This document shows positions 12,644 to 58,769 of a stretch of 64,000 bases of DNA, in pieces. A model generated the notes under the pieces. The model did not search any database and was not told the origin of the DNA. It worked only from the letters and a program-made list of their open reading frames with translations. The DNA comes from a virus: positions 1-64,000 of IMG/VR virus record IMGVR_UViG_3300050821_003843; one strand, 5' to 3'. Position numbers and translations under genes: made by a program. Within the stretch, counting starts at the first letter, position 1; the number at the start of each line of letters is the position of its first letter.

Positions 12644-12660
12644 GTAATTCCGTGAAGTTT

Positions 12661-14035: not shown

Positions 14036-14087
14036 GATTTCCCCTTCAATTTGATTGCAAAGTATGTTTAACCCACCCGACAACAAC

Positions 14088-30320: not shown

Positions 30321-30621
30321 AGATTAGATTGGTATGCCCCGAAGGGTGGAAACAGTGTGGGTTCCAACGTCTTGTGTGTGATGCGGTTGAATGTAGTTTG
30401 AACGATAAGGTACGAATTGCCGACACACTCAAACAATGGATCAATGATGGAGTGATGGAAGCTGAATCGAACCCGAGTACTGGCTTTGCGTTTGTGGATG
30501 GAAATAACTTGTTTGTGGAGTCAGGTGAAGGGACGACGTTACATGACTTCGCTGACTCGTTACAAGATGCTTCGAAATGTGTGGTAGAATACAAGGATGC
30601 AGATGATGAAGGGTGGCAAGT

Positions 30622-36725: not shown

Positions 36726-37862
36726 ATGCATCTAAAGTATCCAAACGTAAATGACGCATTCCACGAATTGGTCTACGGAATTCATAATGGACACATTCCA
36801 ACCGTGTCATCACCTAGTAGAGTTGGTGACGTGTTACAAATCCAAGAACCTGTGATTGTCACATATGAAAAGCCGCTAGAGAGGGTGCTGTTCAACCCTG
36901 CACGCGATGTTAATCCATTCCTGAACTTGTATGAAACACTTTGGATGTTGGCTGGCCGTAATGACATTGCACCATTGGAATATTACTCTAAGAACTATGG
37001 TCAGTTCGTGGATGATGGTGATGGAATGCAGAATGCAGCATATGGATATAGGTGGAGACATGCATTACATAAAGAAATGGGAGATCCATGTAGTAAGTGT
37101 GGTGAGAGCGTTCCTTGTCACTGCGACGCACCATATTGTGTAGATCAACTCAAAGTTATTATCGACCATTTACGAAAGATACCAACGTCAAGACGTGTCG
37201 TGCTCCAAATGTGGAACGTAGAAGATGACTTACTCAAGATTGAAACAACAAAAGATGTTGCGTGCAATCTATGTGCGTTGTTCTCGTTGAGACAAGCTAG
37301 TCGAAAAGAAATAGAAGAAGAGGCACATAACGGCTACTATCTCGATATGACGGTCTACAATCGCTCGAATGACTTGACTCTTGGACTTTTGGGGGCGAAC
37401 GTTGTTCACTTCTCATTTCTACAAGAATACATGGCGAATTGCTTAGGCGTTCAGGTGGGGGTGTATAATCAAGTGAGTAACAATCTCCATTGTTACACAT
37501 CACGTTGGGAACCAGATAAGTGGTTAGCAGAAGGTGTGTGTGATGAGTACAGAAACCAACAGTGGAATCATGTACCGTTAGTTAAGGACCAACAGACGTT
37601 TGATAGTGAGTGTCGTAATTTTGTGGCTATGAACTTTTGCGGTGGTGTAATCCACGATAACCGTTGGGAAGAACCATTTTTGCGAACCGTGGCGCAACCG
37701 ATGATGAATGCCTTCCATTATCACAAACATCGCAAATACTGGGAAGCGTTGAATCACGGTGTTGCGAACATTGCTGACGGCGCTTGGCAATTGTGCGCAT
37801 ACAGATGGATTGAGAAACGACGACTGGCTTGGGAAGCGAAAAAGGAGACGAATGATGAGTAG
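36726..37862 (+). CDS. Thymidylate synthase homologue, probable dUMP hydroxymethylase
   Basis: AYGYRWR, SRRVVLQMW, DVACN, NRSND..GANVVHF (Asn at the dUMP-specificity position), NNLHCY; genomic context. Confidence 0.85.
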   Translation: MHLKYPNVNDAFHELVYGIHNGHIPTVSSPSRVGDVLQIQEPVIVTYEKPLERVLFNPARDVNPFLNLYETLWMLAGRNDIAPLEYYSKNYGQFVDDGDGMQNAAYGYRWRHALHKEMGDPCSKCGESVPCHCDAPYCVDQLKVIIDHLRKIPTSRRVVLQMWNVEDDLLKIETTKDVACNLCALFSLRQASRKEIEEEAHNGYYLDMTVYNRSNDLTLGLLGANVVHFSFLQEYMANCLGVQVGVYNQVSNNLHCYTSRWEPDKWLAEGVCDEYRNQQWNHVPLVKDQQTFDSECRNFVAMNFCGGVIHDNRWEEPFLRTVAQPMMNAFHYHKHRKYWEALNHGVANIADGAWQLCAYRWIEKRRLAWEAKKETNDE

Positions 37863-38097
37863 AGAAGTGTTACGCATGGCAACGATGGTGGCGAATCAAC
37901 GATTGAACTGTATCAAACGAGTCAAGGAGTTAAACAATCAACTCGGGTTGTTGCCATCAATGAAGCCAGAAGAGGTTGACAAGTCATTGAGGGAACTTGG
38001 ATTACAGATCCTGAACCTCGATAATCTCCAGTCAGAATACCAGTCAATGAAACTACAAGCGGAGAACAGTGGTGATCTACCAGCCAATACGCACTAA
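37852..38097 (+). CDS. Small coiled-coil protein
   Basis: AGGAG SD; coupled to the TS homologue. Confidence 0.5.
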   Translation: MMSREVLRMATMVANQRLNCIKRVKELNNQLGLLPSMKPEEVDKSLRELGLQILNLDNLQSEYQSMKLQAENSGDLPANTH

Positions 38098-38636
38098 GAC
38101 AGATTTTGTACGGAGGTATTCCTAGCGGAGAATTTGGCAATAGGTCTCCCACATGGAACGGCTGGCTTGATTGGAATAAAGATCATCTAGGTTCTGATAA
38201 GTTTGAATTGTTTCACATTCGAAATCGTGTTGCAGGTGCAATGACTTGGTATGACGTGCCCAAATTCAAAATGGCTGATACGTGGGATATCGCTTGTCAA
38301 CACTTTAGCGTGGAACAGTTGTACATATCTGCTATGTGCCCTACTGAGTTGACACAAATCCAAGGTGAGGTAATGAGAACAGCCAAAGGACTGTATCTCT
38401 ATTACTCAACCGTAAAGAAGCCGATGCGTCAATCATTGTTGGAAGGGGGTCAAGAAGCACTAGGACTATTTGCAGTTTCTTTACTACAATACTACATGGA
38501 TCAAAACAGTTGGGAATGGTTGAATCACTTACTCGATAGTTATGAAGATCATGTCGTAGAGTTTACAACGCTCTCCAAACGGTGGGGCGCAGTCGAAGGA
38601 TATAACACACTATTTTGGGAGGTTAGAAAGTTCTAA
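38072..38636 (+). CDS. Hypothetical protein, probably made via +1 frameshift at 38120-38125
   Basis: GGAG+GTG start, frame stops at TCC-TAG; +1 frame continues SGEFGNRSPTW..WEVRKF; the TTG at 38106 lacks an SD. Confidence 0.6.
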
Positions 38637-39358
38637 TGGATATTAAACAGTACGAAGAAGCCAGCATGCGCACGATGGCAGACCAGAATGTGATTCGTCT
38701 ACGTAATTTTGAAGGCGTAGATAAAAAAGGTAATCCACAATTTGGCGGAAAAAATAGTAGTACAGTTCTGACACAACTCGACAACGCTGCTAGAGGCATG
38801 GCTGGTGATGTGGGTGAGGTCAATACGTGTGTACAACAAGCATTGGAGTATGGTAAACTACTAGACTTGGTGAATTTGAAGGAAGAACTAGGTGATGTGT
38901 TATGGCGAATCGTACAAGCATGTAACGCCGTGGGGTTCACGTTGGAGGAAGTGATGCAAGCGAACATTTCAAAGCTGGCTATAAGATACCCCGACAAGTA
39001 CACGGACCACTTAGCAGATGAGGCAAATCGAAATCGTGAAGCAGAACGACAAGCAATCACGGTTCCACAACTAGGCGAACCTTATCCAGTTGGTCATACG
39101 AATGACGGTGGAGTGATTGTAGAACCAATGTCACCAACCAGAACAGTAATGTCTCAAACTGGACAAGGTTGGGCAGAACCAAAAGAACAACGTGATACGG
39201 GACCGGGTCGATTGGATCAAGAACTAGAATACCCAGTTTCCAATGCATTTGTGTCTGCTGCTGATGCCCCTGTTCGTAGATGTCGAAAGTGCGGGTTGAA
39301 GATCCATCGTAATCAACCAAGTGATATCTGTTCAAGTTGCTTCAAACCTACAACGTGA
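38636..39358 (+). CDS. MazG-like nucleotide pyrophosphohydrolase
   Basis: GMAGDVGEV, KEELGDVLW, ANISKLAIRYP; C-terminal CxxC..CxxC. Confidence 0.85.
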   Translation: MDIKQYEEASMRTMADQNVIRLRNFEGVDKKGNPQFGGKNSSTVLTQLDNAARGMAGDVGEVNTCVQQALEYGKLLDLVNLKEELGDVLWRIVQACNAVGFTLEEVMQANISKLAIRYPDKYTDHLADEANRNREAERQAITVPQLGEPYPVGHTNDGGVIVEPMSPTRTVMSQTGQGWAEPKEQRDTGPGRLDQELEYPVSNAFVSAADAPVRRCRKCGLKIHRNQPSDICSSCFKPTT

Positions 39359-44046: not shown

Positions 44047-44631
44047 GTGGGAAATAAAGAACTTGCTATTCGTCCATTAACTGCTAGACAGAAAGCATTT
44101 GTTAGAGAGTATGTGCTTCTGAATGATGGAACGAAAGCAGCGATTAAAGCAGGGTACTCTAAAGGTCGTGCAAGTGATGAGGCTAGAGAGCTCTTACAAC
44201 ACCCTGCAATCAAGCGTGAACTCGGTAAAGCACGAGCACATCTAGCTAAACAGTATAAGTCTCAATTGGACTTGGCAATTGGCAGACTTGTGAGTTGTAT
44301 CACTCGTGTGGGTAGTGATTATGTGGATGAACAAGGGCGTCCCATACCTCTCCATCAACTCTCACAACGCGCTAATGAAGCAGTCGATGGGATTGAGGTA
44401 ACTCAGTTTGAGGATAAGGCCGGTAACGTCCACACCAAGACCAAACTGAAGTTGATGCCTTTATCCTCAGGACTGGATATGGCATTCAAGATTCAAGGCA
44501 GTTATGCGCCTGACAAACATCAAGTCGTGACAGCGAATGTGGACTTGAGTGATTTGTACGACAGACCTGAGAATGTGTTGGATGAGGATGTGATTGAACT
44601 CGAACCTGAAAGTGACACACAAGATGAATGA
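44047..44631 (+). CDS. terS: Terminase small subunit
   Basis: LTARQKAFVREY..GTKAAIKAGYS..A.ELLQHPAI. Confidence 0.88.
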   Translation: MGNKELAIRPLTARQKAFVREYVLLNDGTKAAIKAGYSKGRASDEARELLQHPAIKRELGKARAHLAKQYKSQLDLAIGRLVSCITRVGSDYVDEQGRPIPLHQLSQRANEAVDGIEVTQFEDKAGNVHTKTKLKLMPLSSGLDMAFKIQGSYAPDKHQVVTANVDLSDLYDRPENVLDEDVIELEPESDTQDE

Positions 44632-46067
44632 CCTCATTGGGCTGCTACTATGTAGTATGCTGATTGTAGTCTCAATACTCGCGTTACAGGCTGCAAACAG
44701 GCGAGTCAGGTACTTTCGACTGTACACACAAGCAGACCCCGTACGCCTCATCGTGAACGCTGTAGGCGATGTGAGTTGTGAGGGTCTGCACTTTCACAAT
44801 ATGAAGCTACAGCAGATTGATTGGGATCGTGTGTTAGATGAGAGTAATCCATTTATGATCCAACCCGGAATGGAACTGACTGCGAAATGGGTGAGTTGTC
44901 AAACGTTGATGGCGGTCAGCGTGATTAGAAATCACAGTATTCCAATGGTATTGTCGTTAGAAGAGTTTTAAGAAAGTGACACAGATGAGTAAGCAGCCAC
45001 ATAAACAAGACTATCCGGGTGAAAACTGTTGTGGAGATTGTGGTTCTCCACTGAGTGAAGTAGATGAAAATCCAGTACTCGATTATCCAATGGGTCCGGG
45101 CTGGTACTGGTATCAACACCCTGACACAGTAGAGGATAATGATAAGGGTCCACAAAAGGTTGACCCCACGATGATGGAAATTGTATGTCGTGGTACGGAA
45201 TTCTTGGGTATGTGGCAAGGGAACCTAGTACCTCTAACGGCAATGACTGGTAAATGGCAGCGGGCTAAGTTGTCAGCGTTTCATGGGGGTGAGTGATGAA
45301 GATAATTAGAAAAGGGACACCACCTTCTGAGACTCTATGGGTCGGTACTTGTCAATCATGTAACTCTGAAGCAGAGGCTAATCAATCTGAGCTTAAGAAC
45401 ATAGAGCACGATCAGAGAGAGGGATATTCGTTTTGTTGGATGACATGCCCAGTGTGTGGCGCTGGAGGTATGTGTCAAGGAATGTTGTTTTACCCCAAAA
45501 AGTGTGATAATCCATGAGTTCTAAAATCCCACAAGCCCCTCCTTGTCGTCAATGTGGTAAAGTTCCTCATATGAGAATGGAACGTGGGTCATGGATGCCG
45601 TATGGTTGTAACTGTACAGGCACGAATAGACCCGATTGTGATACATCTTATGAAGAGTATCCACAAATTGACTTCACACACAGTATCAACGAAGACAATG
45701 AGATTGAGTACGATCCAAATAGGCGTTTGACATTTGTTGACGGTCTCATAGCTGGCTTCTTGATTGGGTTTGTCGTTGGACTATTGGTGGTGATGAAATG
45801 AGTAAACGGACTGACCACATTAACCATCTTGCCGACTTGCTCAGAGAAGACTTTAAGCGATGGGTAACAACACTACCACTTGAGTCAGTTAGGATTGTTC
45901 ATGAGCGTTTAGAACGAATGACAGATGAAGACACATTGGATGACGTGTACACAGAACTCCATCTGAAGATCACTGGCACGATTCCACAATTCATACAGAC
46001 AGTGGATGCTGCGATTGCACAGTCTGAAGCCGCACAAAGTAGAACTGTTAAGGAACGACTAAATTGA
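44624..46067 (+). other. Small hypothetical ORFs inserted between terS and terL
   Basis: Coupled ORFs at 44624, 44985, 45293, 45514 and 45798; some with CxxC pairs or hydrophobic segments. Confidence 0.55.
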
Positions 46068-47647
46068 TAACAGTCAAACGTGAGGGGATTATTGACCCCT
46101 TGAAGTTCCAACAAAAGTTCTGGCCTGATATCACATTCTATGATAAGCAGCGACAGATAATCTACTCGACAATTGAGAATGATGAAACGGTATCACCCGC
46201 GGCAAATGTTGCGGGGAAGGATTTTGTCTCTGCCTTCGTTGCTCTCTACTTTTTCTGTTCTCGTGACCCTGTTCGTGTGGTCACAACCTCTGTAAAGGAC
46301 GATCATCTTCGAGTGTTGTGGGGCGAGATCATGAATCTTGTCTCTAGTTCGAAGTACCCCATGAGGTCAAGTGAGGGAGGCAACCTTGTCTGTAATCATC
46401 ATGAAATAAAGAAGATAGTACGTGGTAAGTTGTCAGAAAAGTCGTACATGATCGGCATGGTGGCTGCTGAAGGCGCAGCGCTCCAAGGTCATCACTTACC
46501 GCGGGGGAAGAACTTTGCGCCTCACACGTTGTTCGTTGTGGATGAGGCGAGTGGCGTCCCTGACTTGTACTATGAGATGGCGTCGACATGGTTCCATCGT
46601 GCTCTCATCATTGGAAACCCTTGGGCTTGTAACAACTTTTTCTATAAAGCCGTGAAGGGTCGACCGGGCACAGAAGACCGCGGGGGAGACATTCCACGAC
46701 CAGACGGCAACGGGTACTATCGCAAGATCATTCAGATCAAAGGCACTGACAGCCCCAATGTGCGCTATGGTTTATTGGAACTTGCCGCGGGTAGAGTACC
46801 CACAAACAAGATCATTACTCCAGGAGTTCTACCGTACTCGGAGTATGTGAAACGGCGTATGTTGTGGGATAAGGTGAAACAAACGGTATCCATTGACGGT
46901 GAATTCTATGAAGGTGCTGAGACAATGATGTTTCCACCTGAATGGCTGGCAAGGGCTGAAAAGATTGCAGCAGAGTTTGTTCCTTATACAACTCGAACAG
47001 GTAGAGCTATTGGTTGTGACCCCGCAGAGGGTGGAGATAGTTCGTGCTGGTCAGTCGTGGATGGTCATGGATTGATTAAACTCATCTCATTGAAAACACC
47101 TGACACGAACCTGATCCCTTATGAGACAATTCGACTGATGAAACTCTATAAGGTGGACGCTAAAAATGTGTGGTTCGACCGCGGGGGTGGTGGTAAACAA
47201 CATGTCGATCGGCTGCGTTCAATGGGTCATGAGGTACGAACTGTGGCTTTTGGTGAACCGGCATCAGAGGCAGATTTGTTCAAACGCTATAAGAGGATGT
47301 CAGAGAAGCGTGAAGAAAAGGAAGATCGTACTGTTTACAAGAACCGTAGGGCCGAGATGTATGGTATTATACGTGAACTGATTGATCCATCGAATGAACC
47401 CGGCTTTGGGCTACCCGGCGAGTATCATGAATTGAGGCGACAACTAGCACCAATTCCATTACGTTATGGACGAGAGGGTCAAATGTATCTATTACCAAAA
47501 CACAAGGAAAAGAGCGATTCAACTGAAGAATGTCTGTATGACTTACTCGGTTGTTCACCAGACGAAGCAGATTCGTTAGCGTTGGCCGTGTTTGGTTTGA
47601 TGATGAGTGACCGACCACAAATCACAGTAGGAGCAGTTGATGTCTAG
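46064..47647 (+). CDS. terL: Terminase large subunit
   Basis: AANVAGKD Walker A variant, VVDEASG, IGNP, GCDPAEGGD, NRRAEMY, SPDEADS. Confidence 0.92.
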   Translation: MITVKREGIIDPLKFQQKFWPDITFYDKQRQIIYSTIENDETVSPAANVAGKDFVSAFVALYFFCSRDPVRVVTTSVKDDHLRVLWGEIMNLVSSSKYPMRSSEGGNLVCNHHEIKKIVRGKLSEKSYMIGMVAAEGAALQGHHLPRGKNFAPHTLFVVDEASGVPDLYYEMASTWFHRALIIGNPWACNNFFYKAVKGRPGTEDRGGDIPRPDGNGYYRKIIQIKGTDSPNVRYGLLELAAGRVPTNKIITPGVLPYSEYVKRRMLWDKVKQTVSIDGEFYEGAETMMFPPEWLARAEKIAAEFVPYTTRTGRAIGCDPAEGGDSSCWSVVDGHGLIKLISLKTPDTNLIPYETIRLMKLYKVDAKNVWFDRGGGGKQHVDRLRSMGHEVRTVAFGEPASEADLFKRYKRMSEKREEKEDRTVYKNRRAEMYGIIRELIDPSNEPGFGLPGEYHELRRQLAPIPLRYGREGQMYLLPKHKEKSDSTEECLYDLLGCSPDEADSLALAVFGLMMSDRPQITVGAVDV

Positions 47648-49107
47648 GTTTAAACTACCGCACTTTGATTGCCCCACATCTGAGTGCCTTTTGTATAGAA
47701 TAGCTTATCGTCACAGACTCCACAATCCTGTTGAAGAATACAAAAACCAACGAGACATTCTATCACGTCAAGAAGTGTACAGGACTAGACTCTCTGAAAG
47801 GCACGTTGGTAGAGTTGAACGGGCTGAGATTCAATACCACGGTGGTAGATTTCATAGTGGAGAATGGTGATGTCTAGGGTATTTTATTTTGGCTGTTCGT
47901 GGCCCCCACATGACTTCTTTACTCGAAAGAAACAAACGATGTCTGACAAAATAACAATTATGGTTGGTGGTAGGCCAGAAGAAGTTCCAATGACCGACAT
48001 TGAAAAGAACGAATGTCGTGACAGAACTGGTAAGTCTCTTATCTGTTGGGATACAGTCCGTTTTAGTGGCATGTCGTTTGACCATATTGACGTCATTCAG
48101 GATATTGCGTTTGATAACGGACGTGTGTTACTCCACAATCATAAAGGGTTAGTCGATCCTAAAAGACTACACCTACTCAGAAGGGGCGTAATGCCATGAA
48201 TGAAACGACACGTGAAGAAAAACTAGCTGGAATGACTGTATTGGAACAACGTGAATTCGAGTTCCAAGGTAGAAAAGTCACCGAACTGATTGTACAGAAT
48301 GGAGCGAATGACTATCGAGTTATGTGGGCGTTATCACCCTTCTTCGAAATGGTCATTGATGGTGTGCCGAATCCAATTGTGTCTTTTTCTTATCTCGCAG
48401 ATAAACATACTGGTTATGATTTTTACTCGTTCAAGTCTATTGCACGTCGTCGAGTACAAGAAATGTTCGAGGATACGTTGAAGAATCCACCAATGCATCT
48501 ACTACCAACGGAATGAACAAATGAAAGTTGACGAACTGAAAGACCAGACTAAGAGGGTTGAGCGTGGAAGTGCAATTCAACAGACATTACAGCAGATCGC
48601 ACAAGAGTATAAAGTAGTTTCTTCGGCGGTGTGGGTGTGTGTTGCTAGTAATGAAATTAGATACTCACCCTCAATAGATCCGCCAACTATAGGTTATGCG
48701 GTTGGTGGCATTCCATATGAAGCAACCAAGAAGATGAGAGATGAATTGAGGCAAATTCTACTCAATCACCTACAGTCAAGAATCGACGCATTAAAAGCAG
48801 AATTCGACGCACTATGAGAACAAATCCACCAGTATTCACAGATCGTTACTACGTTGACAAAATCCAATTTGAACATGATGAACCTATCTATATTGTTCGT
48901 GATTGTATCACAGAAGAAGCGTTCCATTGTTGGACAACTGTGATTGAAGATGATGCACAAGGCGAATCGGCTAAGTTCACTATTCCATTTTTCATGAAAA
49001 TTGACGACACAAATCAACATAGCATTAGAGGATGTGCGTTCTGTTGTGCAACACTAGGATCAGCGATCAGTCTACTCCACAAACTTCAAGATGAGGCGTC
49101 AGCCTAA
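47637..49107 (+). other. Small hypothetical ORFs between terL and portal
   Basis: ORFs near 47637, 47939, 48196, 48521 and 48814. Confidence 0.5.
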
Positions 49108-51608
49108 TGGAACAATCGAGTAACGGACATACAGACACGAATCAACAGCGTGCAGATGCGTTGAATAAATCTTTTCCATTCAGTGGTAGTCAACCAGTCA
49201 ACAATGAGGATTATTCTGCAACGTCAATGGCCGATCAGTTAGTCGCCAATCACATCATGTCACGATTCAACTGGATGGCACAAATGTTGTTACCTGGTCG
49301 TGACATCTATAAAGAATGTGGTTATCCTCCGTGTGGTGAGGCAATCCCCGCACAACTCTATCGTGACATGTACGACCGTGATGCCTTGAGCGCTCGTGTC
49401 GTGCAGGTATTACCAAAGGAATCATGGCAGGTACAGCCAGCGATCTATGAAGATGAAGACCCAGAAGTCGAAACAGCATTTGAAACAGCATGGCAGGAAC
49501 TGCATCGTACACTGAGGGGTAATAGTCTGTATCAAGATGAACAGTGTTCTCCTATTTGGGATTACTTGTTACGGGCTGATATTCTGTCTGGTATTGGTCA
49601 TTATGGCGTGTTGCTACTCGGTATCGACGACGGCCAGCCCCTTGACCACCCACTTGAGGCATTCAGGGGTTTCGACTCACAACAACCCGGTACAGAGGGT
49701 TTACACGGTCCTGAACCACTACGGGGCGATGCGCAAGGCTACGACACGTTCACCACGAAGCAACTTGATGAGCAGGGCGTGCCATCCTTTGCCACACCCG
49801 TTCCATTTAATGTGAAATCAGCAACTAAAGACAGTACAGAGGAATCTGTTGGCGGTAAGGGCACAAGTAAACTTATCTATCTAAAGGTATTCGATGAAAC
49901 GCTGGCACAAATCACTAGATATGAACGCGATCCACACAATCCAAGATTTGGCCTTCCCCAAATGTACCTACTCACGTTCAATGACCCGAGGAACGATCCT
50001 AGTGGTGGTGCTGGTCTGCCTGTTGCTTCTGCTCATTGTCACTGGTCACGTATCATTCACATTGCAGACAATACAGGCTCCAATGACGTCCTAGGCTACC
50101 CGAGAATGAAACAAGTGTTCAATCGCTTGTGGGACGCCTTTAAGACATATGGCGCATCAGGTGAGGGATTCTGGCAAATGGCTTTTGCCATGTTGTCATT
50201 GGAAACGAATCCCGCATTAGGCGCTGACTTCAAAATAGACCAGGATGCATTAAGGGAACAATTACAGAAGTTGAGAAGTGGATTTCAACGTCACTTGGTT
50301 ACCGCGGGGATGACAGCAAAAACACTGCCTCCCGCATTGAGTGACCCAACACCGTACATCAACATCTTCATTGAAGCAATTTGTATCTTTCTAGGCTGTC
50401 CTGTTCGTGTGTTTAAGGGGAGTGAGCGTGGTGAACTTGCTTCTACTCAGGATGACTCAAGTTGGAATGATAGGCTACGTCATCGACAGATATTCTATCT
50501 AACGCCGAAGATTTTAGTACCATTTATTGATCGTTTGATTACTGCTGGAGTGTTGCCTAAACCAAAAGGCTACTCGGTGGTGTGGCCAGACTTGGAAGCA
50601 TTGTCGGATAAGGATCGTGCGACCATTGCACTACAGAGCACACAAGCCCTAGCAGCCTACATTGCTGGTCAGTGTGAAAACGCCATGACACTGTTGGACT
50701 TCTATGTCAACATCATGAAAATTCCACATGAACTAGCCGTACAGATTGTTGACTCAGCCCAAGCGGCACAAGATGCAGAAGAACAGCAGACGATTGAAGC
50801 AGAACCCACAATCGAGGAACAACAGGCACAGACAGACGCGAGTGTACCAACACATGAAAAAGAAGCAGCATTGACTGATGCTGGTGACACGCAAAATACA
50901 GAATTAGCGTTTAACAACTGGGCTAAGTGGAATGCAGAACATCGTGGCAATGGCATTTCTGGTACGGCCATTCAACTCGGCGAGGTTGCCAAAGTTAAAA
51001 ACACCAAAAAATCTCATATGGAGGCTGCTGAAGCGCACGATAAAGCCTCAAGTCAATTTCATAAGAGTGGCGATGAGAAACTTGCTAGGATGCATCATTT
51101 AGAAAAATGGAGACATATAGATCACGTCAACAAAATGGACTCCATGCCAAAGAAAGATAAAATTAAAGGTGGCGTAGTCCATGTGACGGCTGAAAGGGCA
51201 ATATCTCACACATTACATGTAGGAAATGTAGAAGTTCCTAATGGTGAACTCAGTAAGATGGTTAAGTTACCATTAGAAGAGCATAAATTTGGCGGGGCGT
51301 CTATTGGTGAGCATGGTAATGGACACAATCATTTAAACTCGATGAAGACTCGTGCTACTTCTAAAGGTGTTCGAGACGCATTGATTGAACAGGGATGGCA
51401 ACACACACATACGCACAACCTACCTAGTGCCGCTGGTGGTAAGAACCATCAAGAGGGGTTTGTTAAAGGTGGTCATGTTCTAACAACTGTAGATGTCGGT
51501 TACGGAGACACAACCTTAAGAGTCAGTAAAAAACCAGCAGGGGTCCAAAATTATGACACAACACACGAGAAGGTATTAGCAGAACAAGATGGTGACACTC
51601 AAGAATAG
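49107..51608 (+). CDS. Portal protein (DUF1073-like) with C-terminal extension
   Basis: Position after terL; MYDRDALSARVV, ADILSGIGHYGVLLLG, HWSRIIH, PVRVFKGSERGELAS. Confidence 0.85.
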   Translation: MEQSSNGHTDTNQQRADALNKSFPFSGSQPVNNEDYSATSMADQLVANHIMSRFNWMAQMLLPGRDIYKECGYPPCGEAIPAQLYRDMYDRDALSARVVQVLPKESWQVQPAIYEDEDPEVETAFETAWQELHRTLRGNSLYQDEQCSPIWDYLLRADILSGIGHYGVLLLGIDDGQPLDHPLEAFRGFDSQQPGTEGLHGPEPLRGDAQGYDTFTTKQLDEQGVPSFATPVPFNVKSATKDSTEESVGGKGTSKLIYLKVFDETLAQITRYERDPHNPRFGLPQMYLLTFNDPRNDPSGGAGLPVASAHCHWSRIIHIADNTGSNDVLGYPRMKQVFNRLWDAFKTYGASGEGFWQMAFAMLSLETNPALGADFKIDQDALREQLQKLRSGFQRHLVTAGMTAKTLPPALSDPTPYINIFIEAICIFLGCPVRVFKGSERGELASTQDDSSWNDRLRHRQIFYLTPKILVPFIDRLITAGVLPKPKGYSVVWPDLEALSDKDRATIALQSTQALAAYIAGQCENAMTLLDFYVNIMKIPHELAVQIVDSAQAAQDAEEQQTIEAEPTIEEQQAQTDASVPTHEKEAALTDAGDTQNTELAFNNWAKWNAEHRGNGISGTAIQLGEVAKVKNTKKSHMEAAEAHDKASSQFHKSGDEKLARMHHLEKWRHIDHVNKMDSMPKKDKIKGGVVHVTAERAISHTLHVGNVEVPNGELSKMVKLPLEEHKFGGASIGEHGNGHNHLNSMKTRATSKGVRDALIEQGWQHTHTHNLPSAAGGKNHQEGFVKGGHVLTTVDVGYGDTTLRVSKKPAGVQNYDTTHEKVLAEQDGDTQE

Positions 51609-51616
51609 GATAGCTG

Positions 51617-51775
51617 ATGTCTGAATCTGATAAGGCAAACTTAGACCAACAGTTAGCACAATTGAGGGATGGATTACCTCGATTCTGGTTTGCAATCTAT
51701 CAGGGTTGTTTGGATGCTGGTTTCAGTGAAGCACAAGCAATGCTCATTGTGTTGGAGTTTGTTAGAAAGAATTGA
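51617..51775 (+). CDS. Small hypothetical protein
   Basis: AGGA SD; 52 aa with AGFSEAQAM; below the ORF-track cutoff. Confidence 0.5.
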   Translation: MSESDKANLDQQLAQLRDGLPRFWFAIYQGCLDAGFSEAQAMLIVLEFVRKN

Positions 51776-51778
51776 CTG

Positions 51779-53998
51779 ATGTCTCTACTGGTTGCCAAAA
51801 AACCTAAACGTACTACCTCGAATCCTCTCAAGTACGACCCAAGTGGTACAGGTCAGATCCGTCGTCAATTCATGCGACAGATAGAAGCCAAGTTCAAGGA
51901 ACTGAATCGTCGTGTCTACCAACGGTTAGTCAATGAACATCAGTATGGATTAACACAGAACTATGATCCAGCACAACCACGAGTACCAGCGGGTTCGCCA
52001 GAAGGTGGGGTTGTTTGGAGTGTCGTCATTAACAATGTGAAATCAGAGTTCTATGGTTGGAACTATGAGATCGTAGCAAATTCTCCATACGATTTCCCAC
52101 AGTCAGAAAACTACCTGTCTCAGTTCAAACAATGGTTACTGAAGCAGATGAGTGAGTTGTTCTATAATGAGGATGAGAATTCATGGTGGAGGGAATATAT
52201 TGCAAAGGGTTGGCAACTTGGCGCAGCGAAGGTGTATAACGCTTGGAAATCACCAAGTGAGTTTCTCAAGTCATCGTTTAACGTACCTGTCTCGGTCAAC
52301 AAGGTAAAACTCCTCGCAGCACGAGTATTCACAGAACTGGAAAACGTCACACAAGACATGGCAACTAAGATGAGTCGTGAACTTGTGGATGGATTGATTC
52401 AGGGCATGTCACCACGCGAAGTGGCTCGAAACATGTCGAAGTCGATCGAGGGGATCAGTAAAGCACGAGCGTTAGCGATTGCTCGCACGGAAGTTGTTAG
52501 ATCGCACGCTAATGGACAATTGGATACGTTAGAGCAACTGGGGATGCAGCATGTGGGCGTTGCAGTGGAGTGGTCAACATCCGGGTTAGGGATGACTAGA
52601 AAGAAGAACCCAAGTCCTTGCCCAATTTGCGCACCGATGCAAGGTGTGGTGTTCACGCTCGAAGAAGCTAGAGGTATGATCCCTAGACATCCAAATTGTC
52701 TTTGTTCCCTGATTCCGGCCAATGTAGGGGAGGACGGTAAGGGTCAAATTCGCTCGTTTAAAGGCGTGTCAGCGGCTTTAGGCAAAAGTGTCAGGGCTGA
52801 AATACCCAAGCGGTCAAAACGCACTGTAGCGACTCAGGCGAAGTTATCACGATGGGCAGGTGCAACGGCAAAGGTCAGTAAATCACGACCTGAATCAATT
52901 TTGAATATGGAACTGATTGATAACCTGAATCCATACCACGATGCACAAGGGAGATTCTGTTCTAAAGAGAATGCTGTCAACTGGCATGAGATTAAATATC
53001 AACGTACAGAACCTATCTACACTCGCCCACAAAGTAAGCACGTAGACGAAGTGACTCACAAAGCGTTGATAGATGCGGAACTTGCCCAACAGGGCGGTGG
53101 TATTGCTGACAAAGCAAATATGTTTCGAAGTGAGATGTCAAAGCACAATAAAGAACTCGAAGTGATTCGACAAAAACTTGTTAAGGACGTTGCTAGGCAT
53201 GAACGTGAAATTGCAAAGCATGGTGCTGAATTCAAACGAATCCTTGATGAACATTCCAAAGCATCTAACGTTGATGAGAAAAAAGCAAATAAGTTGAATC
53301 GTCAAGGTATCGCATCTCACAACCGACTATCAAAAGCACGTGAGAAACTGGAGTATGCTAAGGTAGAGGCACGTAACGCACTACTCGACCACATCGGTAC
53401 AAAAGATCCTGCCCCAGTCAAATTATGGGGATTGGCAGCGATGCCCGAATCGAGTGCCAAACGTGCATTAGAGGCTGCTGAGTGGTATGGGCAAATTTTA
53501 TCGAAGAAGGTAGTGAGTCGACCAGACAAGGGCTATCACAGTATCGACGCTTATCCAATTGAGGATGGTCGTTCCTTTGCACAAAACAAGTCTCAGAGTA
53601 AAGTTGATTTTGGTGTTGATCATGAAATCCATATGGCACACCATGCAGCAGTGGATATTCACATCCATGAGATTGGACATACAATCGAATTTGCTAATCC
53701 TAAAATCAATGACATGACATTAGGCTTTATTCACCATCGTGTTCAAGGCGAATTACCACAACCGTATCCATACGGTGATAAAGACGAAGTAGGATTTAAA
53801 GATGAGTTTGGTAAATCATTTTCAGGGCATGCTAACGCAATCTATGTTGGAAAACACTACGCATCAGGCGCAACTGAGATTCTAGCTATGGGGTTTCAGA
53901 AGTTGTACAACAATCCGGGTGAATTCGCCCATAAAGATCCAGAGTATTTCAAATTCCTAATTGGTGTATTAAGGGGGGATTTCAGTGAAAGGAAATAA
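51779..53998 (+). CDS. MuF/SPP1 gp7-like head morphogenesis protein with C-terminal HExxH domain
   Basis: RALAIARTEVVR, CPIC, IPRHPNCLC; HEIGH at 53666. Confidence 0.88.
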   Translation: MSLLVAKKPKRTTSNPLKYDPSGTGQIRRQFMRQIEAKFKELNRRVYQRLVNEHQYGLTQNYDPAQPRVPAGSPEGGVVWSVVINNVKSEFYGWNYEIVANSPYDFPQSENYLSQFKQWLLKQMSELFYNEDENSWWREYIAKGWQLGAAKVYNAWKSPSEFLKSSFNVPVSVNKVKLLAARVFTELENVTQDMATKMSRELVDGLIQGMSPREVARNMSKSIEGISKARALAIARTEVVRSHANGQLDTLEQLGMQHVGVAVEWSTSGLGMTRKKNPSPCPICAPMQGVVFTLEEARGMIPRHPNCLCSLIPANVGEDGKGQIRSFKGVSAALGKSVRAEIPKRSKRTVATQAKLSRWAGATAKVSKSRPESILNMELIDNLNPYHDAQGRFCSKENAVNWHEIKYQRTEPIYTRPQSKHVDEVTHKALIDAELAQQGGGIADKANMFRSEMSKHNKELEVIRQKLVKDVARHEREIAKHGAEFKRILDEHSKASNVDEKKANKLNRQGIASHNRLSKAREKLEYAKVEARNALLDHIGTKDPAPVKLWGLAAMPESSAKRALEAAEWYGQILSKKVVSRPDKGYHSIDAYPIEDGRSFAQNKSQSKVDFGVDHEIHMAHHAAVDIHIHEIGHTIEFANPKINDMTLGFIHHRVQGELPQPYPYGDKDEVGFKDEFGKSFSGHANAIYVGKHYASGATEILAMGFQKLYNNPGEFAHKDPEYFKFLIGVLRGDFSERK

Positions 53999-54242
53999 AG
54001 AACTCGGGGTGGTGAAAAAGGGTAGTAGTAAAATCGTATGGACTACGGATGGCTGGTATAGTGAGGAAGATAGGCAAGCCGCTGCTTTCTTAAACGCTGC
54101 TGGTATAGGAACAGAAGGTGTGAGTTCTATCTCACCAACGGCCTATTCTGATATTCTCATACAAGCAATGAACTTGATTCACGGTGATGGATTCAAGTGT
54201 TTTGTGAAATCCAGTTCTCAACCAGTTGGCACAGTGTACTAA
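53985..54242 (+). CDS. Small protein overlapping the MuF stop (candidate immunity protein)
   Basis: GGGGG SD; 14-nt overlap. Confidence 0.4.
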   Translation: MKGNKELGVVKKGSSKIVWTTDGWYSEEDRQAAAFLNAAGIGTEGVSSISPTAYSDILIQAMNLIHGDGFKCFVKSSSQPVGTVY

Positions 54243-54951
54243 CATGAAAGAAAGTTGACACATGTTTCGCTTCATTAGAAAACTATGGGATTTGTTTTGG
54301 CTGTGGTTTGATAGAACTATACTGACTGATGATAAAGACCATGCTCGGATTGCTGAAGGAATGGTTGGGTATCAAGGCACAACGAGATCAGAAGTAGAAA
54401 AACAAACGCGCCTGTCATTTTCACCAGAAGAACTAGCAACGGTTGAAACACAATCCTCGCAGCAGGATTTGATTGACGTTGAGGAAATGAAGCCAGTAAG
54501 GAACATGGGCTTCGGTGAACGTGTGATTTGCACAGCCCCCAACGGTGAAAGATACTGGGTCTACCCGAAACAGCCAGATGAAGAACAACGCTATTCACAC
54601 AAGACCTATGAAGAGTTTATTCTTCAAGAATACCGACGATTAGGCTTAGAAAAACGAGTTTGAAACGACACAAGTGGAGTATAGATATGTCAGTGACACA
54701 CATTGCCGGTCCAACAGTCACAGTAGGTCAAAGGAAGATACAGAGATGTTTAGTTTGTGGTGAAAAATTAGCAGACAACATCGACATTCTAAAAGGAATA
54801 GTCGCGTCACCAGATGTACCGCCAGAATACCTACAATGGCCTCCGGGTGACTTAGTCCAACAGGACGGTAATCGAACTTCTGTGATTCAACACGTTGATG
54901 GAACCGATTTGCCAGAAGATTGTTGTATTAACATGGTGGAGGAATAATCCA

Positions 54952-55212
54952 ATGGCAAGAGATGAGAATGGATTCACACCGACACAAGCAAGGATCGTGA
55001 ATGTACTCATAGATGGTACATGGCATCCTAAACGTGAGTTACTCTATGCAGTCGATGAACTGGCAGATGATGACAATCTACTACAGTACCATCTAAAGAA
55101 CATCAAACGTATCTTGAAGCCTCGAAACGAACACATTACGTTCCAAATTCATCCCACAATGGGCACGCTCTATATGCTGACTCGTGCCTTGTCTCCATCG
55201 AATATTGGTTAG
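54952..55212 (+). CDS. Winged-helix-like protein
   Basis: GGAGG SD; FTPTQARIVNVLIDG..ELL..LQYHLKNIKRIL. Confidence 0.5.
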   Translation: MARDENGFTPTQARIVNVLIDGTWHPKRELLYAVDELADDDNLLQYHLKNIKRILKPRNEHITFQIHPTMGTLYMLTRALSPSNIG

Positions 55213-55308
55213 CGGTTCGCCGTAGTTTTTACAGACAGCTATTTCAACCGCCCGAAGTTACCTGTATCACTGGACCCCTAGTAGCTATTTTGCTCTGGGG
55301 GTTTTTTC

Positions 55309-58173
55309 GTGCAGATACACAATTCAAATCCTGAAGGTCACAATCAGTATTCCAATGTGTCTAAAGTTGCCGCTAAAGACCATATCCATGATACTGGCAA
55401 AAATGGGGTGGTTAGTTATCTAGTAAACAAGCCAGATAGTTATTACCACAGAAAAACCGGCACGTTAGAGGCAGTTAGAGGGGGTCGACTGCGTTTATTG
55501 ATGCAGACTGAAGATAAGCACGGCAACAAAACTCAAACATCTTGGCACTTCTATCCACATGAATTGACACTTCACAAAGTCACTCCAATTACAAATCGAG
55601 AATTACCACAATTAGAATATCTTGTACAGAACCTGTCTAATGCCAAGTATAGACATGAGACGCTAAACGGTCGTAAACACATCGTTGTCCCCATGACGAT
55701 GATTGTTCCCGGAGTTCTCAACGGTTCTAAGGGTTCTTTATTTTACCCCGAAGAGGAAGTTGGTAAAGATCCAACACCTTGGAACGGGATGCCGATTACC
55801 GTCTATCACCCGATTCGTAACGGGAAGAACGTCAGCGCTAAGACTGACGGTATTCTCGATGAACAAGGGATAGGTGAAGTTCGCAAAGCCAAGACCGATG
55901 GTAAACTCCGTGCAGAAGCGTGGATTGACATCGACAAAGCGAATAAGGTTGACCCACGTGTGATTCAAAATATCCAACGTGGTTTACCAACCGAAATCTC
56001 GACTGGGCTCTATACCAAAAACTCGCCAGCGCCCAAGGGGTCACACCACAACGGCAAACCCTACGAATGGATTGCTCGTGAGTATAGACCTGACCACTTG
56101 GCGATTCTACCTGACCAAAAAGGAGCATGTAGTGTGAATGACGGTTGTGGATTGGGCGTGAATGCTGAAGTAGATGAAGAGCCAATTGACAACGATTGGG
56201 CTAAATCATTGTTCCCAACAGGGGAGAAGGAGTTTGTCTTGAAGCGGTTAGAAACTAATTCCAACCCAGAGGGGCATAATCAGTGGACGCATGGTGGTGT
56301 AACTGTCCATTTTTCTGGTGACACCTTCAAAGCTAAAGCATCTTTGAAAGACAAGGGCTTTAAATACGATGGTGACAATAAGAGATGGAGTAAAGATTTC
56401 GTAAAGGGACAGCATCCATTACATGTAAATTCACTCCATGATGCCAAAGGCAACTTTCAAGACACGCCAGAAGGTATGCATAAGACAATCAAGTATCTTG
56501 CCAAGTCAGATAAAGTTCACATGGAATTGGAGCATCATCCAGTGTCAAATCAAGAACTAGAAATTAACTCATTCTCAGATTACAAGTGTTCTGGCGCTGA
56601 ATGCAAGATGAAGTCTGAAACGGCTAACGCTCACTCAGAACTCGCAGATAAGACCGAACGTGAGAGTGACCATGCGAAAGCTGCGAGGATGCATCAAGAT
56701 GCCAGTGCAGCATACATGAGTCACGAATCAGGTGCGAAGGTTGATAAAGCAGCAGAGCACAGTACAAAAGCCGCAGAACATGCTGAAAAGGCTGGTACTA
56801 GCTTTGTGTCGTACAACGAAGAACACGAAGAAGTTGAGAATGGTGGTCCAGGTAGTGGCCCACATCCACATATTGCTCTAGCTGTAGCTCATGCAAGAAC
56901 TGCTTTGAACTACACTAGCGGACATCATACTGATAGTGACGTCTATGGTGCTCGTCTAAAAAATGCTAAATCAGGAGTCAGCCTTTCTGAAGTCGCTCAA
57001 ACAGCCTCTCATTCAGCCCTAAAAGATAAAACTAGCTTGGGACACGACAAAGCAGCTTATGCGCATAATGAGGCAATGCAGACACATTCAAAAGCAATGG
57101 TTTTGCATGCCGATTCTGGTGCAGGCCACAAAGAAGCCTATCTTGCTCATGAAAAAGCCAGAGATTCACATTCGATTATGAAAAAATTCCATAGAGGTGC
57201 TTCTGCTTCACTGTCACACAATTCACAGGAACCAGATATGGATTTTGCAAATAACGGTGGACCCGGATCAGGACCACATCCCGGACAGATACACTCAATC
57301 AGTCATTTAGCTAATGAGAAATCTACGGCGGCTGATAATGCAACAAACAAGTTCAGAGCTAATTCTTCTATTGCAAATAAGCAAACAGCAATAGAGCACC
57401 ACCAGACCGCGTTGTCTCTTCATAAGATGTCAAAAGAAGGACATAAGGAACTTGGTAATAAAGGATTGAGGGAACATCATTCTGCACAGGTTCTTCATCA
57501 CACAAAACAACTCGCATACTTGTCAAAAGCTCCAACAAACAATTCCGACGATCCTGAAGGTTCGTCATTTAACTCCAATGAAGAAGGAGAAACTATGGCG
57601 AAACTGACGGCCAATCAACGAAGTCAGATTATCAACAAACTCACGTCAGACAAGGGGTGTGGTTGCTATACGGCAAACGATGCTGATTATCTGCAATCAC
57701 AATCTGATGAACGACTGAACGAACTTGCTATCAATGCTGAAGAGCATTTGACACACAATGAAGAAAGGGAAGAGCCAGTGGCTAAGGTAATGACAGCACA
57801 AGAATACATGGACGCAGCCCCACCAGAAATCCAGCAGATCATTGCAAATGCGGCTGAGATCATGCGTACCGAAAAGGCTGGCATCATTGCCAAGCTGGTG
57901 GCAAACATCAGTGACGCAGCGAAGAAAGCATCAATGACCACGATGCTAGAATCGAAGACGTTACCAGAAGTTAAAACCTATGCCGAACTGGCTGAATTGG
58001 CTGCGCCTAAGCCTGTCGAAAATACGCGACGTACTGTCTATGGTCCATTGGGTAATACTCCAATCGTGACGGATAATGCTGGTAAGGATACCGATGCCGA
58101 AGAAATGACTCCATCACGATTCGATTGGAATGAAGTGGCACGGATTCCCGGCTTGGCAACCTCCAAGAACTGA
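55309..58173 (+). CDS. DUF2213-type prohead protease/scaffold polyprotein with inserted modules
   Basis: GVLNG, WNGMPITVYHP, EISTGL, PDHLAILPDQKGACS..GCG; lies before decoration and capsid genes. Confidence 0.8.
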   Translation: MQIHNSNPEGHNQYSNVSKVAAKDHIHDTGKNGVVSYLVNKPDSYYHRKTGTLEAVRGGRLRLLMQTEDKHGNKTQTSWHFYPHELTLHKVTPITNRELPQLEYLVQNLSNAKYRHETLNGRKHIVVPMTMIVPGVLNGSKGSLFYPEEEVGKDPTPWNGMPITVYHPIRNGKNVSAKTDGILDEQGIGEVRKAKTDGKLRAEAWIDIDKANKVDPRVIQNIQRGLPTEISTGLYTKNSPAPKGSHHNGKPYEWIAREYRPDHLAILPDQKGACSVNDGCGLGVNAEVDEEPIDNDWAKSLFPTGEKEFVLKRLETNSNPEGHNQWTHGGVTVHFSGDTFKAKASLKDKGFKYDGDNKRWSKDFVKGQHPLHVNSLHDAKGNFQDTPEGMHKTIKYLAKSDKVHMELEHHPVSNQELEINSFSDYKCSGAECKMKSETANAHSELADKTERESDHAKAARMHQDASAAYMSHESGAKVDKAAEHSTKAAEHAEKAGTSFVSYNEEHEEVENGGPGSGPHPHIALAVAHARTALNYTSGHHTDSDVYGARLKNAKSGVSLSEVAQTASHSALKDKTSLGHDKAAYAHNEAMQTHSKAMVLHADSGAGHKEAYLAHEKARDSHSIMKKFHRGASASLSHNSQEPDMDFANNGGPGSGPHPGQIHSISHLANEKSTAADNATNKFRANSSIANKQTAIEHHQTALSLHKMSKEGHKELGNKGLREHHSAQVLHHTKQLAYLSKAPTNNSDDPEGSSFNSNEEGETMAKLTANQRSQIINKLTSDKGCGCYTANDADYLQSQSDERLNELAINAEEHLTHNEEREEPVAKVMTAQEYMDAAPPEIQQIIANAAEIMRTEKAGIIAKLVANISDAAKKASMTTMLESKTLPEVKTYAELAELAAPKPVENTRRTVYGPLGNTPIVTDNAGKDTDAEEMTPSRFDWNEVARIPGLATSKN
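57595..58173 (+). CDS. Probable nested scaffolding protein (internal in-frame start)
   Basis: AAGGAG SD before in-frame ATG; helical C-terminus, as in lambda C/Nu3. Confidence 0.55.
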   Translation: MAKLTANQRSQIINKLTSDKGCGCYTANDADYLQSQSDERLNELAINAEEHLTHNEEREEPVAKVMTAQEYMDAAPPEIQQIIANAAEIMRTEKAGIIAKLVANISDAAKKASMTTMLESKTLPEVKTYAELAELAAPKPVENTRRTVYGPLGNTPIVTDNAGKDTDAEEMTPSRFDWNEVARIPGLATSKN

Positions 58174-58222
58174 TTTCACCCTTTGTGGTTTTCTGTTTAT
58201 TCAACTTTAGTAGGAGATAACG

Positions 58223-58717
58223 ATGAAGGGTGCTGAAATCCTTATCAATGGGAATCAACCTAATGGGCGATTTCTTGAAGGTACTGTGAGTGGTACGCCT
58301 GCGCCGGGTACGTGTATGGAGGTTCTGCCAGCCACGGAACCCGTCAATGGTCGATTTACTTATCGCGCGTGTACGTCTGGTAGTAACGGTGATTCACGAC
58401 CGACAACGGTGCTACTCGAAGACGCACTACAAGGCGTGACCCCGGATATCAATGGTGCAAATACCTACGTTAATGGAGCACGGTGCTTCCTCTATGTCCC
58501 TGTACCGGGGGATGAACTGAACATGCTGGTGGAAAACATTAGTGGTACTGGAGACAGTCACGCGATTGGTGACTTACTCATGATTGACCGTGCTACAGCC
58601 GGTAATCATGGAAAGTTGCTGGTCCAAGACTCGGCCGGTCATAGTGCCCCATTTACATGTATGGAAACGAGTACGGGACTGACTGTTGATACTTTGCTGG
58701 CTTGTCGATTCGGCTGA
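58223..58717 (+). CDS. Head decoration/cement protein
   Basis: Between scaffold and capsid genes; EDALQG, PGDELNML. Confidence 0.65.
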   Translation: MKGAEILINGNQPNGRFLEGTVSGTPAPGTCMEVLPATEPVNGRFTYRACTSGSNGDSRPTTVLLEDALQGVTPDINGANTYVNGARCFLYVPVPGDELNMLVENISGTGDSHAIGDLLMIDRATAGNHGKLLVQDSAGHSAPFTCMETSTGLTVDTLLACRFG

Positions 58718-58769
58718 TTCCTTTGCGGGTTGACCGCAGTAAATTTCTCAATCCCTTAGGAGGTGTATT

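Follow-up and report, generated by a model that had tools for sequence, protein, structure and literature searches.

Tagged modules behind asparagine junctions in phage head proteins and a putative asparagine-specific prohead protease

The DNA analysed here, referred to as the window, consists of bases 1-64000 of the 72,917-base IMG/VR virus record IMGVR_UViG_3300050821_003843, a record with direct terminal repeats, and it holds the head module of an uncultured tailed phage of ~73 kb. Three head proteins encoded on its + strand, the portal protein (P0001, 49107-51608), a MuF-like protein (P0002, 51779-53998) and a 954-residue protease-scaffold chain (P0003, 55309-58173), carry additional modules that begin directly after an asparagine (Asn) with one of several short conserved peptides, here called tags. 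An earlier note on this DNA had proposed that an Asn-specific prohead protease releases such modules as internal proteins. Comparison with other phages supports this in part, through the recurrence of Asn at the presumed P1 position (the residue ahead of the cut) and through a residue ahead of the tag that tracks the protease family. That residue is contig-specific and varies with the type of protease encoded, so that the DUF2213 prohead protease of this clade most likely has Asn as its P1 residue, and the tags would be the N-termini of the released pieces. As judged from sequence comparison, the explanation as a whole, in which Asn-specific cutting inside the prohead would release tagged internal proteins, is probable.

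Asparagine junctions in the portal, MuF and protease-scaffold proteins

The head genes of the window described below all lie on the + strand. P0003 starts with a five-residue leader (VQIHN, from a GTG with GGGGG 8 bases upstream) and module M0 (residues 6-96), which together occupy 55309..55596. M0 begins with tag A at the junction IHN/SNPEGHNQY (Ser6 codon at 55324) and finishes PITN96, and the relative P0013 shares this leader layout (MPQSTLN/ANPEGHNQYT). The DUF2213 prohead protease core follows (residues 97-285, 55597..56163), ending DGCGLGVN285, and then an acidic linker (residues 286-317, 56164..56259) that ends RLETN317 and includes PIDN295/DWAKS, a degenerate tag E; relatives have N/DWAKWNAEH directly after the core. 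Module M1 (residues 318-511, 56260..56841) starts with tag A at ETN/SNPEGHNQW (56260) and ends EEVEN511. Tag B heads both the helical module M2 (residues 512-649, 56842..57255), at VEN/GGPGSGPHP (56842), and M3 (residues 650-760, 57256..57588), a three-helix bundle reached through FAN/NGGPGSGPHP (57253). The chain is completed by a scaffold domain (residues 761-954, 57589..58170) that was matched by BLAST in 64 subjects.

The portal core (residues 1-603, 49107..50915; Phage_portal_3, 66.4 bits; phrog_146) ends TELAFN603, and the junction AFN/NWAKWNAEH (residues 603/604, 50913-50918) opens a C-terminal cargo segment (residues 604-833, 50916..51605) with tag E, NWAKWNAEHRGNG. Homology to the portals of relatives stops at query residue ~537-602, and this cargo module is missing from most of them; most end within ~100 residues of the homology end, and about a quarter carry 150-1000 extra residues. 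In two related loci (L040 and L050), the DUF2213 protein has, between its core and its scaffold, a segment with 57% identity to portal cargo residues 755-808. A search of 5.8 billion proteins with residues 604-833 returned only the query itself, an Atlas search gave no usable hit and no Pfam family was matched.

In the MuF-like protein, the core (residues 1-376, 51779..52906; Phage_Mu_F, 39.5 bits; phrog_758) ends RPESILN376. It is followed, at 52907..53995, by the linker MELIDN382, tag C at IDN/LNPYHDAQGRF (52925) and 357 residues of cargo with a coiled coil and a zincin-like domain, whose HEIGH motif lies at residues 630-634 (53666-53680). An Atlas structure search groups residues 560-739 with C-terminal MuF parts and metallopeptidase clusters, and in seven MuF open reading frames (ORFs) of relatives, among the matches listed, homology reaches approximately query residue 733. 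A PDB sequence search with the MuF-like protein gave chance-level hits only. All motifs that the earlier note had quoted were found in the translations at the places it gave, with the coordinates recomputed. Its claim that Asn delimits the non-core segments of the three carriers held at six of the seven sites and failed at TQN/YDPAQPRVPAGSPEGG in the MuF-like protein (51962): TQN61/YDPAQPRVPAG was rejected as a cargo boundary, the stretch being a variable MuF loop in relatives that is followed by MuF core.

When the complete genome (72,917 bases) was scanned in all six frames, the tag motifs appeared in the three head genes only. A search for related loci starting from P0003 alone found no relative, and an alignment-based search gave 80 loci. 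The homologue set consisted of 63 proteins of 535-1563 residues, namely P0003's own record and 62 relatives. At least one of NPxGxNQ[YWHF] and GGxGSG was present in 40 of the 63, the former occurring 37 times with Asn two residues ahead in 36, and the latter 42 times with Asn immediately ahead in every case. When distinct sites were counted over the 63 homologues and the ORFs of the 80 IMG/VR loci, the preceding Asn was found at 39/40 sites of tag A (NPxGxNQY), 2/2 of tag C, 8/8 of tag E ([DN]WAKWN, the tag of the portal) and 6/6 of tag F ([AV]W[ST]DxAR). It was present at 47/53 sites of GGxGSG, the six exceptions being loose GGKGSG-type matches, and at 15/23 of tag D, with five more having it one residue further upstream. 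The P3 residue at most tagged sites was V, T, I, L, A or F. Thus one prefix, consisting of a hydrophobic or beta-branched residue, any residue and Asn, is common to several unrelated tags. The exact string NPEGHNQYT is rare in IMG/VR, since only 5 loci matched it. As a separate observation, a 1008-residue ORF in one locus (L085) has a module headed by tag C (NPHHDERGHF), with Asn two residues ahead, that resembles by eye a flavin adenine dinucleotide (FAD)-dependent pyridine nucleotide-disulfide oxidoreductase.

The earlier note had asked whether module boundaries in relatives match the Asn sites, and they do, as the modules are swappable and their homology starts at these sites. The M1 homologue in P0007 begins exactly at ATN/ANPEGHNQY and the M3 homologue in P0035 at VDN/GGPGSGPHK. 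BLAST grouped 79 tagged modules of the homologues into 41 clusters; 34 had a single member, and tags A and B occurred together in five. These comparisons support portable tags on swappable units that start at Asn sites. Relatives also include small ORFs with 17-65-residue leaders ahead of a tag, and one of these (in L052) is a stand-alone ORF of 220 residues with a 65-residue leader ending T-N-N, then tag E. The cargo modules at 50916-51605, 55324-55596 and 56260-57588 contain 8.8-10.9% His (9.1% in the portal module, 10.9% in M2), whereas His makes up 1-3% of the cores of the portal, protease, scaffold and capsid proteins; this richness hints at metal or pH-dependent behaviour. Pfam searches with six cargo segments gave nothing above cut-off and no recognisable effector family; the best rows below cut-off, Colicin_Pyocin (E 0.014) and ATLF (E 0.44), were not used. 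The only candidate for a catalytic domain in the cargo of the window is the HEIGH zincin at the MuF C-terminus.

The same prefix was also found at sites that carry no tag. The major capsid protein (MCP, P0004, 58791-60005) has a 74-residue leader (58791..59012) that ends SPVFN74, followed by the predicted mature protein (residues 75-404, 59013..60002) with an encapsulin-like HK97 fold. It matches DUF6260 (PF19774; 35.5 bits against a cut-off of 26.6), and phmmer aligned its residues 66-214 with residues 6-148 of the type 1 encapsulin 9zvv_A (E 4.6e-4). The solved encapsulin chains begin opposite MCP residue ~61-66, and therefore the first 60-74 residues of the MCP are an added leader. The note's placing of VFN/DTTLRK ahead of the capsid core was borne out, with Asn74 unchanged in 58/58 distinct relatives within P-V-F-N/A-T-S-L-R-K and with Val, Thr, Leu or Ile at P3 in all 58. 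In the closest cultured relatives, the Brevundimonas phages vB_BpoS-MaInes and vB_BpoS-StAshley (host B. pondensis LVF1), the MCP reads DALRTN41/ATLLIDEW where Asn74 stands here. No solved phage capsid is as near to the MCP in sequence as the shell proteins of type 1 encapsulins (E 4.6e-4). At the end of the protease core, described by DGCG-h-x-h-N (h, hydrophobic), Asn occurs 3-5 residues past CG in 105/109 distinct tails. In the scaffold, LTHN817 (66/76), LVAN866 (103/123) and VTDN923 (107/121) are kept in relatives and are among the few conserved columns of an otherwise variable domain. Of the Asn sites said to stud the scaffold, THN817 and VAN866 thus proved conserved and TAN769, AIN809, IAN847 and VEN905 poorly so; TDN923 had not been listed.

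For [VILTAF]xN, a loose pattern, the expected frequency was taken from 300 shuffles of each protein. P0003 had 35 occurrences against 20.3 expected (z 4.3), the MuF-like protein 18 against 13.0 (z 1.6) and the remaining 103 ORFs, pooled, 340 against 323, and clear enrichment was seen in P0003 only. For the narrower [VTIL]xN in the 80 related loci, occurrence was 2.23 times expectation in 74 distinct protease-scaffold proteins, 1.39 times in portals, ~1.2 times in MCP and MuF and 1.10 times in other + strand ORFs; the relatives are not independent, which inflates z values from this comparison.

The assignment of the protease core was examined by profile, alignment and structure. With residues 1-330 of P0003, the PF09979 (DUF2213) model scored 24.5 bits (cut-off 22); searched at its full length of 954 residues, P0003 had no Pfam hit at E 0.01 or better, and a precomputed PF09979 hit was present in 8/63 homologues. 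The gene lies between those for MuF and MCP and has a scaffold fused at its C-terminus, the placement of a DUF2213 protease. Across the 63 homologues, the core (~110-285) and the last ~190 residues are conserved and the middle is variable. His167 (55807-55809), Ser231 (55999-56001) and His263 (56095-56097) are invariant in the 63 sequences, align with motifs of gp33 of coliphage TLS and would form the catalytic triad. An AlphaFold model of P0003 had a mean predicted local distance difference test score (pLDDT) of 66.6, with the core (110-286) at 95 or above. Values below 50 were obtained for residues 1-49, 85-108, 287-296, 305-453, 470-557, 639-656 and 746-761. Confident helical units were modelled at 559-636 (M2) and 658-740 (M3), and a beta sheet at 50-81 in M0; a structure search with M3 matched generic helical bundles only. 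The junction Asn residues 96, 285, 295, 511, 648/649 and 745 all fall in low-pLDDT linkers between confident folds. The modelled core aligned with T4 gp21 (5jbl_C) over 138 residues (VIA-align Z 10.7, root mean square deviation 3.4), and in the Foldseek list T4 gp21 (E 1.2e-3) was followed by proteases of herpesviruses. Neither P0003 nor TLS gp33 gave a hit when searched by sequence against the PDB. On the profile and the model, the core of P0003 is predicted to be a divergent DUF2213 enzyme with a fold like that of T4 gp21 and herpesvirus assemblin.

The residue ahead of the tag in other lineages

A scan of IMG/VR for GGPGSGxxGH found at least 189 stretches, which after deduplication gave 167 sites on 86 contigs among the matches listed. 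The residue preceding the tag at these sites was K (46), D (42), R (27), L (20), E (14), A (5), N, M and F (3 each), H (2), I (1) or Q (1). Pairs of sites on the same contig shared this residue in 162 of 185 cases among the matches listed, whereas shuffling gave 35.2 ± 5.4 with a maximum of 61 in 2000 shuffles.

Twelve contigs besides this genome (G002, G004 and G006-G015) were typed for their protease. Lys preceded the tag at 8/8 sites of a contig with Peptidase_S78 and an HK97-family capsid (G006), and L-F-E or L-L-E at 4/4 sites of one with Peptidase_S77, Gp23 and Portal_T4 (G008). Asp was found in three contigs with a canonical DUF2213 protease (G010 and G011, ~165 bits; G002, 153 bits), Leu in one with Mu-like_Pro (G014), and Asn in the one that has the portal and MuF of the present clade (G015). 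In G002, T-E-D/SNPEGHNQYT heads ADP-ribosyltransferase-like proteins, A-M-D/GFNGNQHTGG is on the portal and A-M-D/EFEEDLHPRDDHGRF on MuF, and A-M-D also occurs twice in the MCP leader and x-M-D five times in the scaffold. An alignment of the Asn-type with the Asp-type DUF2213 core revealed no obvious pocket residue accounting for the switch at P1.

In HK97 gp5, Lys103 lies directly ahead of Ser104, which we take to be the start of the mature protein, and the L-F-E and L-L-E of G008 match L/I-x-Glu, presumably the T4 cleavage rule. An LPE motif is described as required for gp21 action (PMC12991175, preprint). The residue ahead of the tag thus recovers two known specificities, those of HK97 and T4, and it is chiefly on this ground that it is interpreted as P1. 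Thus, as far as the contigs compared here can tell, the pre-tag residue appears to follow the protease family of the contig: Lys for S78, L-x-Glu for the T4 type, Asp for canonical DUF2213 and Asn for this clade.

Outside this clade, modules that begin with the same tag include Zeta_toxin, ADP-ribosyltransferase, Gln_amidase (glutamine deamidase) and GNAT, and such toxin and enzyme modules would fit an effector role there. Two contigs that have the long tag GGPGSGxxGHxGRPGxxGGS encode giant head-region ORFs (L294, G013, 6601-15318; L289, G010, 5419-16750), whose modules include Zeta_toxin, 2H phosphoesterase, glutamine deamidase and CdiA_C-like ones. Intein and homing-endonuclease domains were also seen inside MuF-like and other head-region genes of further tag-bearing contigs (L282, G006, 5886-7916; L285, G008, 171-3389 and 7861-11637).

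Coliphage TLS, which is T1-like, provides the only measured cut in the DUF2213 family that was found. Its gp33 belongs to PF09979 like P0003 (82.5 bits, against 24.5 for P0003 residues 1-330), is likewise a protease-scaffold fusion encoded between MuF and MCP, and has His, Ser and His motifs that align with those of P0003; BLASTP of P0003 against gp33 was not significant. In contrast to P0003, gp33 has 369 residues and is without cargo modules or tags. The TLS capsid protein gp36 loses an N-terminal leader, the N-terminus determined by Edman sequencing being ASDMGIW (PMC11447400). On the TLS translation (L002, 15087-16061) this sequence maps to residue 28 of gp36, after K-N-Asp27, so that P1 in TLS is Asp (K-N-D/A) whereas this clade has Asn. 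A profile alignment of the MCP with gp36 by hhalign was weak (E 0.04) and places the TLS cut within ~2 residues of Asn74; it was not counted as evidence.

Proposed processing and its alternatives

The chain of 954 residues would comprise, in order, the leader, M0, the core, the linker, M1-M3 and the scaffold, with the protease as its second unit. Inside the assembled prohead it would cut after Asn in [V/T/I/L]-x-Asn. Such cutting would remove the 74-residue leader of the MCP, free the protease from its own chain and chop the scaffold. It would also set free M0-M3, the C-terminal 230 residues of the portal and, from MuF, a C-terminal part of 357 residues that includes the zincin. The released pieces would begin with a portable tag (SNPEGHNQY/W, GGPGSGPHP, LNPYHDAQGRF or NWAKWNAEH). 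Since the carriers (portal, MuF and scaffold) are inside the prohead, the freed modules would start out inside the shell, where they could stay as internal proteins. We infer the cut and its exact bond, retention in the capsid, ejection, and the role of the tags and of the His-rich modules.

Several observations weigh against this scheme. The enrichment of [VILTAF]xN in head proteins, which the earlier note had suggested testing, was clear for P0003 and failed for the portal (14 against 12.6 expected) and the MCP (10 against 7.4), both of which stand near expectation. The invariance of Asn74 and of the Asn following DGCG could have a structural cause, and it is not a rule that the MuF core ends in Asn, an idea that was rejected when Asn followed RPxSIL in only 6 of 22 pattern-matched relatives. 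Among the typed contigs, G007 (Lys) has an HK97-family capsid only, and no protease family was found in G009, G012 and G013 (Glu, Arg and Arg, respectively). A further DUF2213 lineage (G004, locus L091) has the small residues Ala, Thr or Ser ahead of its tags and fits only with a one-residue shift. The residue shared within a contig may be due in part to duplication, though the sites differ at positions -6 to -2. For gp36, the authors of the TLS paper surmise the loss of 45 residues, in conflict with their own Edman position (PMC11447400); the cut used here is taken from the Edman sequence. The tags are conserved over ~10-20 residues on the prime side, beyond what a protease site usually needs, and therefore they must in part serve some other role. 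Finally, folded modules might leave the capsid or be degraded instead of being kept.

Two features of the L091 locus (G004) were noted in their own right: a 1933-residue DUF2213 polyprotein (5804-11605) with at least nine GGPGSG tags and several NPEGxNQYT tags, preceded by h-R-x-A/T/S, and a capsid protein with S-L-R-A/L at the position of Asn74.

A wider reading of the tags may tentatively be put forward, as a possibility to which we give clearly less credence than to the scheme above. The tags (GGPGSG, [S/A]NPEGHNQYT, NPxHDxxGRF and DWAKWNAEH) would be a handle on cargo N-termini that is independent of protease family and used across tailed phages; the pre-tag residue would read out the P1 of any prohead protease, this clade would have the first Asn-specific protease of the gp21/assemblin fold, and the tag would then anchor cargo to DNA or the shell interior, or guide ejection.

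The junction peptides could instead be hinges or docking motifs that are never cut, with the long proteins acting intact and Asn simply being the first residue of the tag. The conservation of the tags over 10-20 residues, in excess of the need of a cut site, and the predicted flexibility of the junctions would suit such a role, and some polyvalent proteins travel full-length, according to cases cited in PMC5512222. However, the residue ahead of one and the same tag varies by lineage and tracks the protease family, different tags have the hydrophobic-x-Asn prefix in common, and this prefix also occurs tag-free at the end of the MCP leader and in the scaffold. Uncut junctions are thus unlikely.

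It is quite unlikely, too, that cutting occurs as proposed but by another enzyme, either the C-terminal zincin (HEIGH) of MuF or a host protease, in place of the DUF2213 protease. MuF does carry an HExxH zincin-like domain, and self-processing by metallopeptidase domains of polyvalent proteins has been proposed by Iyer et al. 2017 (PMC5512222). An HExxH beyond residue 350 was, however, found by a crude pattern in only 14/59 distinct MuF relatives, as against 58/58 for MCP Asn74, and the pre-tag residue tracks the type of prohead protease, the rules known for HK97 and T4 among them.

Spontaneous breakage of the bond after Asn through a succinimide, as in asparagine peptide lyases, is very unlikely. 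Such lyases include the nodavirus coat protein and the C-terminal Asn of inteins, and Asn-Gly and Asn-Ser are chemically labile pairs, both of which are present here (N/GGPGSG and N/SNPEG). Other lineages, however, have Lys, Asp, Arg, Leu or Glu ahead of these tags, and therefore the tag is not an Asn-lyase module. The sites, moreover, lie in disordered linkers, with no fold to strain the bond and no folded domain of the kind a lyase has, and the hydrophobic preference at P3 indicates recognition by an enzyme. That the junctions reflect chance and an Asn-rich composition can be dismissed as scarcely credible: [VILTAF]xN is expected ~20 times per 954 residues and the portal and MCP are not enriched, but P0003 stands at z 4.3, Asn is nearly invariant ahead of tags in relatives and invariant at MCP position 74, and sites within a contig agree in 162/185 pairs against ~35 among the matches listed.

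Relation to known systems, genomic setting and significance

The processing of head and internal proteins at one motif is textbook knowledge for T4 and for giant phages; in T4, one short motif stands at the leader ends of the capsid protein, the scaffold and the packaged internal proteins. The shared-motif logic here is alike, since hydrophobic-x-Asn recurs at residue 74 of the MCP, where the protease core ends, within the scaffold and at every tagged junction, and, as mentioned above, T4 gp21 has a fold like that of the P0003 core. The T4-like contig G008 has L-x-Glu directly ahead of the same GGPGSG tag. In contrast to T4, which cuts after Glu, the predicted P1 here is Asn; cargo enters T4 heads by way of a short N-terminal leader, whereas here it is fused to the portal, MuF or protease-scaffold chain; and the conserved element lies before the cut in T4 and after it (the tag) in this phage.

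HK97 gp4/gp5 is similar in that a prohead protease removes an MCP leader, the delta domain, and its Lys103/Ser104 matches the Lys ahead of the tag in the S78-bearing contig G006; it differs from the present case in protease family (S78), in P1 and in having no cargo. The encapsulin principle is that cargo is marked by short peptides. The MCP is encapsulin-like by sequence, though here it belongs to a tailed-phage capsid with portal, terminase and protease, and the tags are presumably unlike encapsulin loading peptides.

In the giant phage SPN3US (and in the phiKZ type), many head proteins, including the portal and ejected proteins, are reported to lose propeptides at one motif through gp245, a protease that also cuts itself (PMC10052503). 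This single-motif processing resembles the scheme proposed here and differs in having Glu at P1 and in removing N-terminal propeptides; no downstream tag is described in the portion of that source drawn on. Modules fused to MuF and portal proteins were recognised by Iyer, Burroughs, Anand, de Souza and Aravind in 2017, with proteolytic release and delivery together with the DNA being proposed (PMC5512222). The proteins described here resemble those polyvalent proteins in their extra MuF and portal modules, in the MuF zincin-like domain and in having several unrelated modules, which here come after the cores of the portal, MuF and protease. In contrast, Pfam recovered none of the effector domains named in PMC5512222 from six cargo segments, and the portion of that paper drawn on describes no junction tag and no link to the specificity of a prohead protease.

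With regard to the genomic setting, the small terminase (44047-44631) and large terminase (46064-47647) are encoded ahead of the portal gene, and four small ORFs lie between P0002 and P0003. Between P0003 and the MCP gene lies P0005 (58223-58717), a protein of 164 residues that may be a decoration or head accessory protein; neither Pfam (nothing above cut-off) nor phrog gave it a family, and its relatives were matched in 70 ORFs across the 80 related loci. Megablast of 49107-60005 against cultured phages found no match at the DNA level. Just past the capsid gene, two long ORFs overlap on opposite strands (60487-61158, -; 60553-61047, +). Elsewhere in the window, a gene set for hypermodified-thymidine DNA was seen at 7682-9840, 30613-32823 and 36726-39358, with MazG, a thymidylate-synthase-like protein, an amino acid:DNA transferase (ADDT) and a 5-hydroxymethyldeoxyuridine (5-hmdU) DNA kinase (HMUDK_hel, 142.8 bits); a radical SAM protein and a double methyltransferase are encoded at other places in the window.

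In the literature searched, in which subscription journals are sparsely covered and supplements were outside the search, no phage paper with the tag strings was found. Within the same coverage, no title or abstract reported a prohead protease that cuts after Asn, and by title or abstract the literature on DUF2213 held nothing on specificity. The present window adds the occurrence of four tag types on three carriers in one phage, together with the correspondence between the protease family and the residue ahead of the tag. To our knowledge, the specificity of prohead proteases is established experimentally for only a handful of phages. If the pre-tag residue is indeed P1, the sequences of thousands of uncultured phages would disclose the specificity of their proteases. 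The sequence itself may then reveal which proteins ride inside the capsid, and no proteomics would be needed to list capsid cargo, meaning the proteins that are injected together with the DNA. Enzymology would gain a new kind of serine protease, one of the gp21/assemblin fold with specificity for Asn, which might also be useful as a tool, and the conserved tags constitute an as yet unexplained element whose function can be tested.

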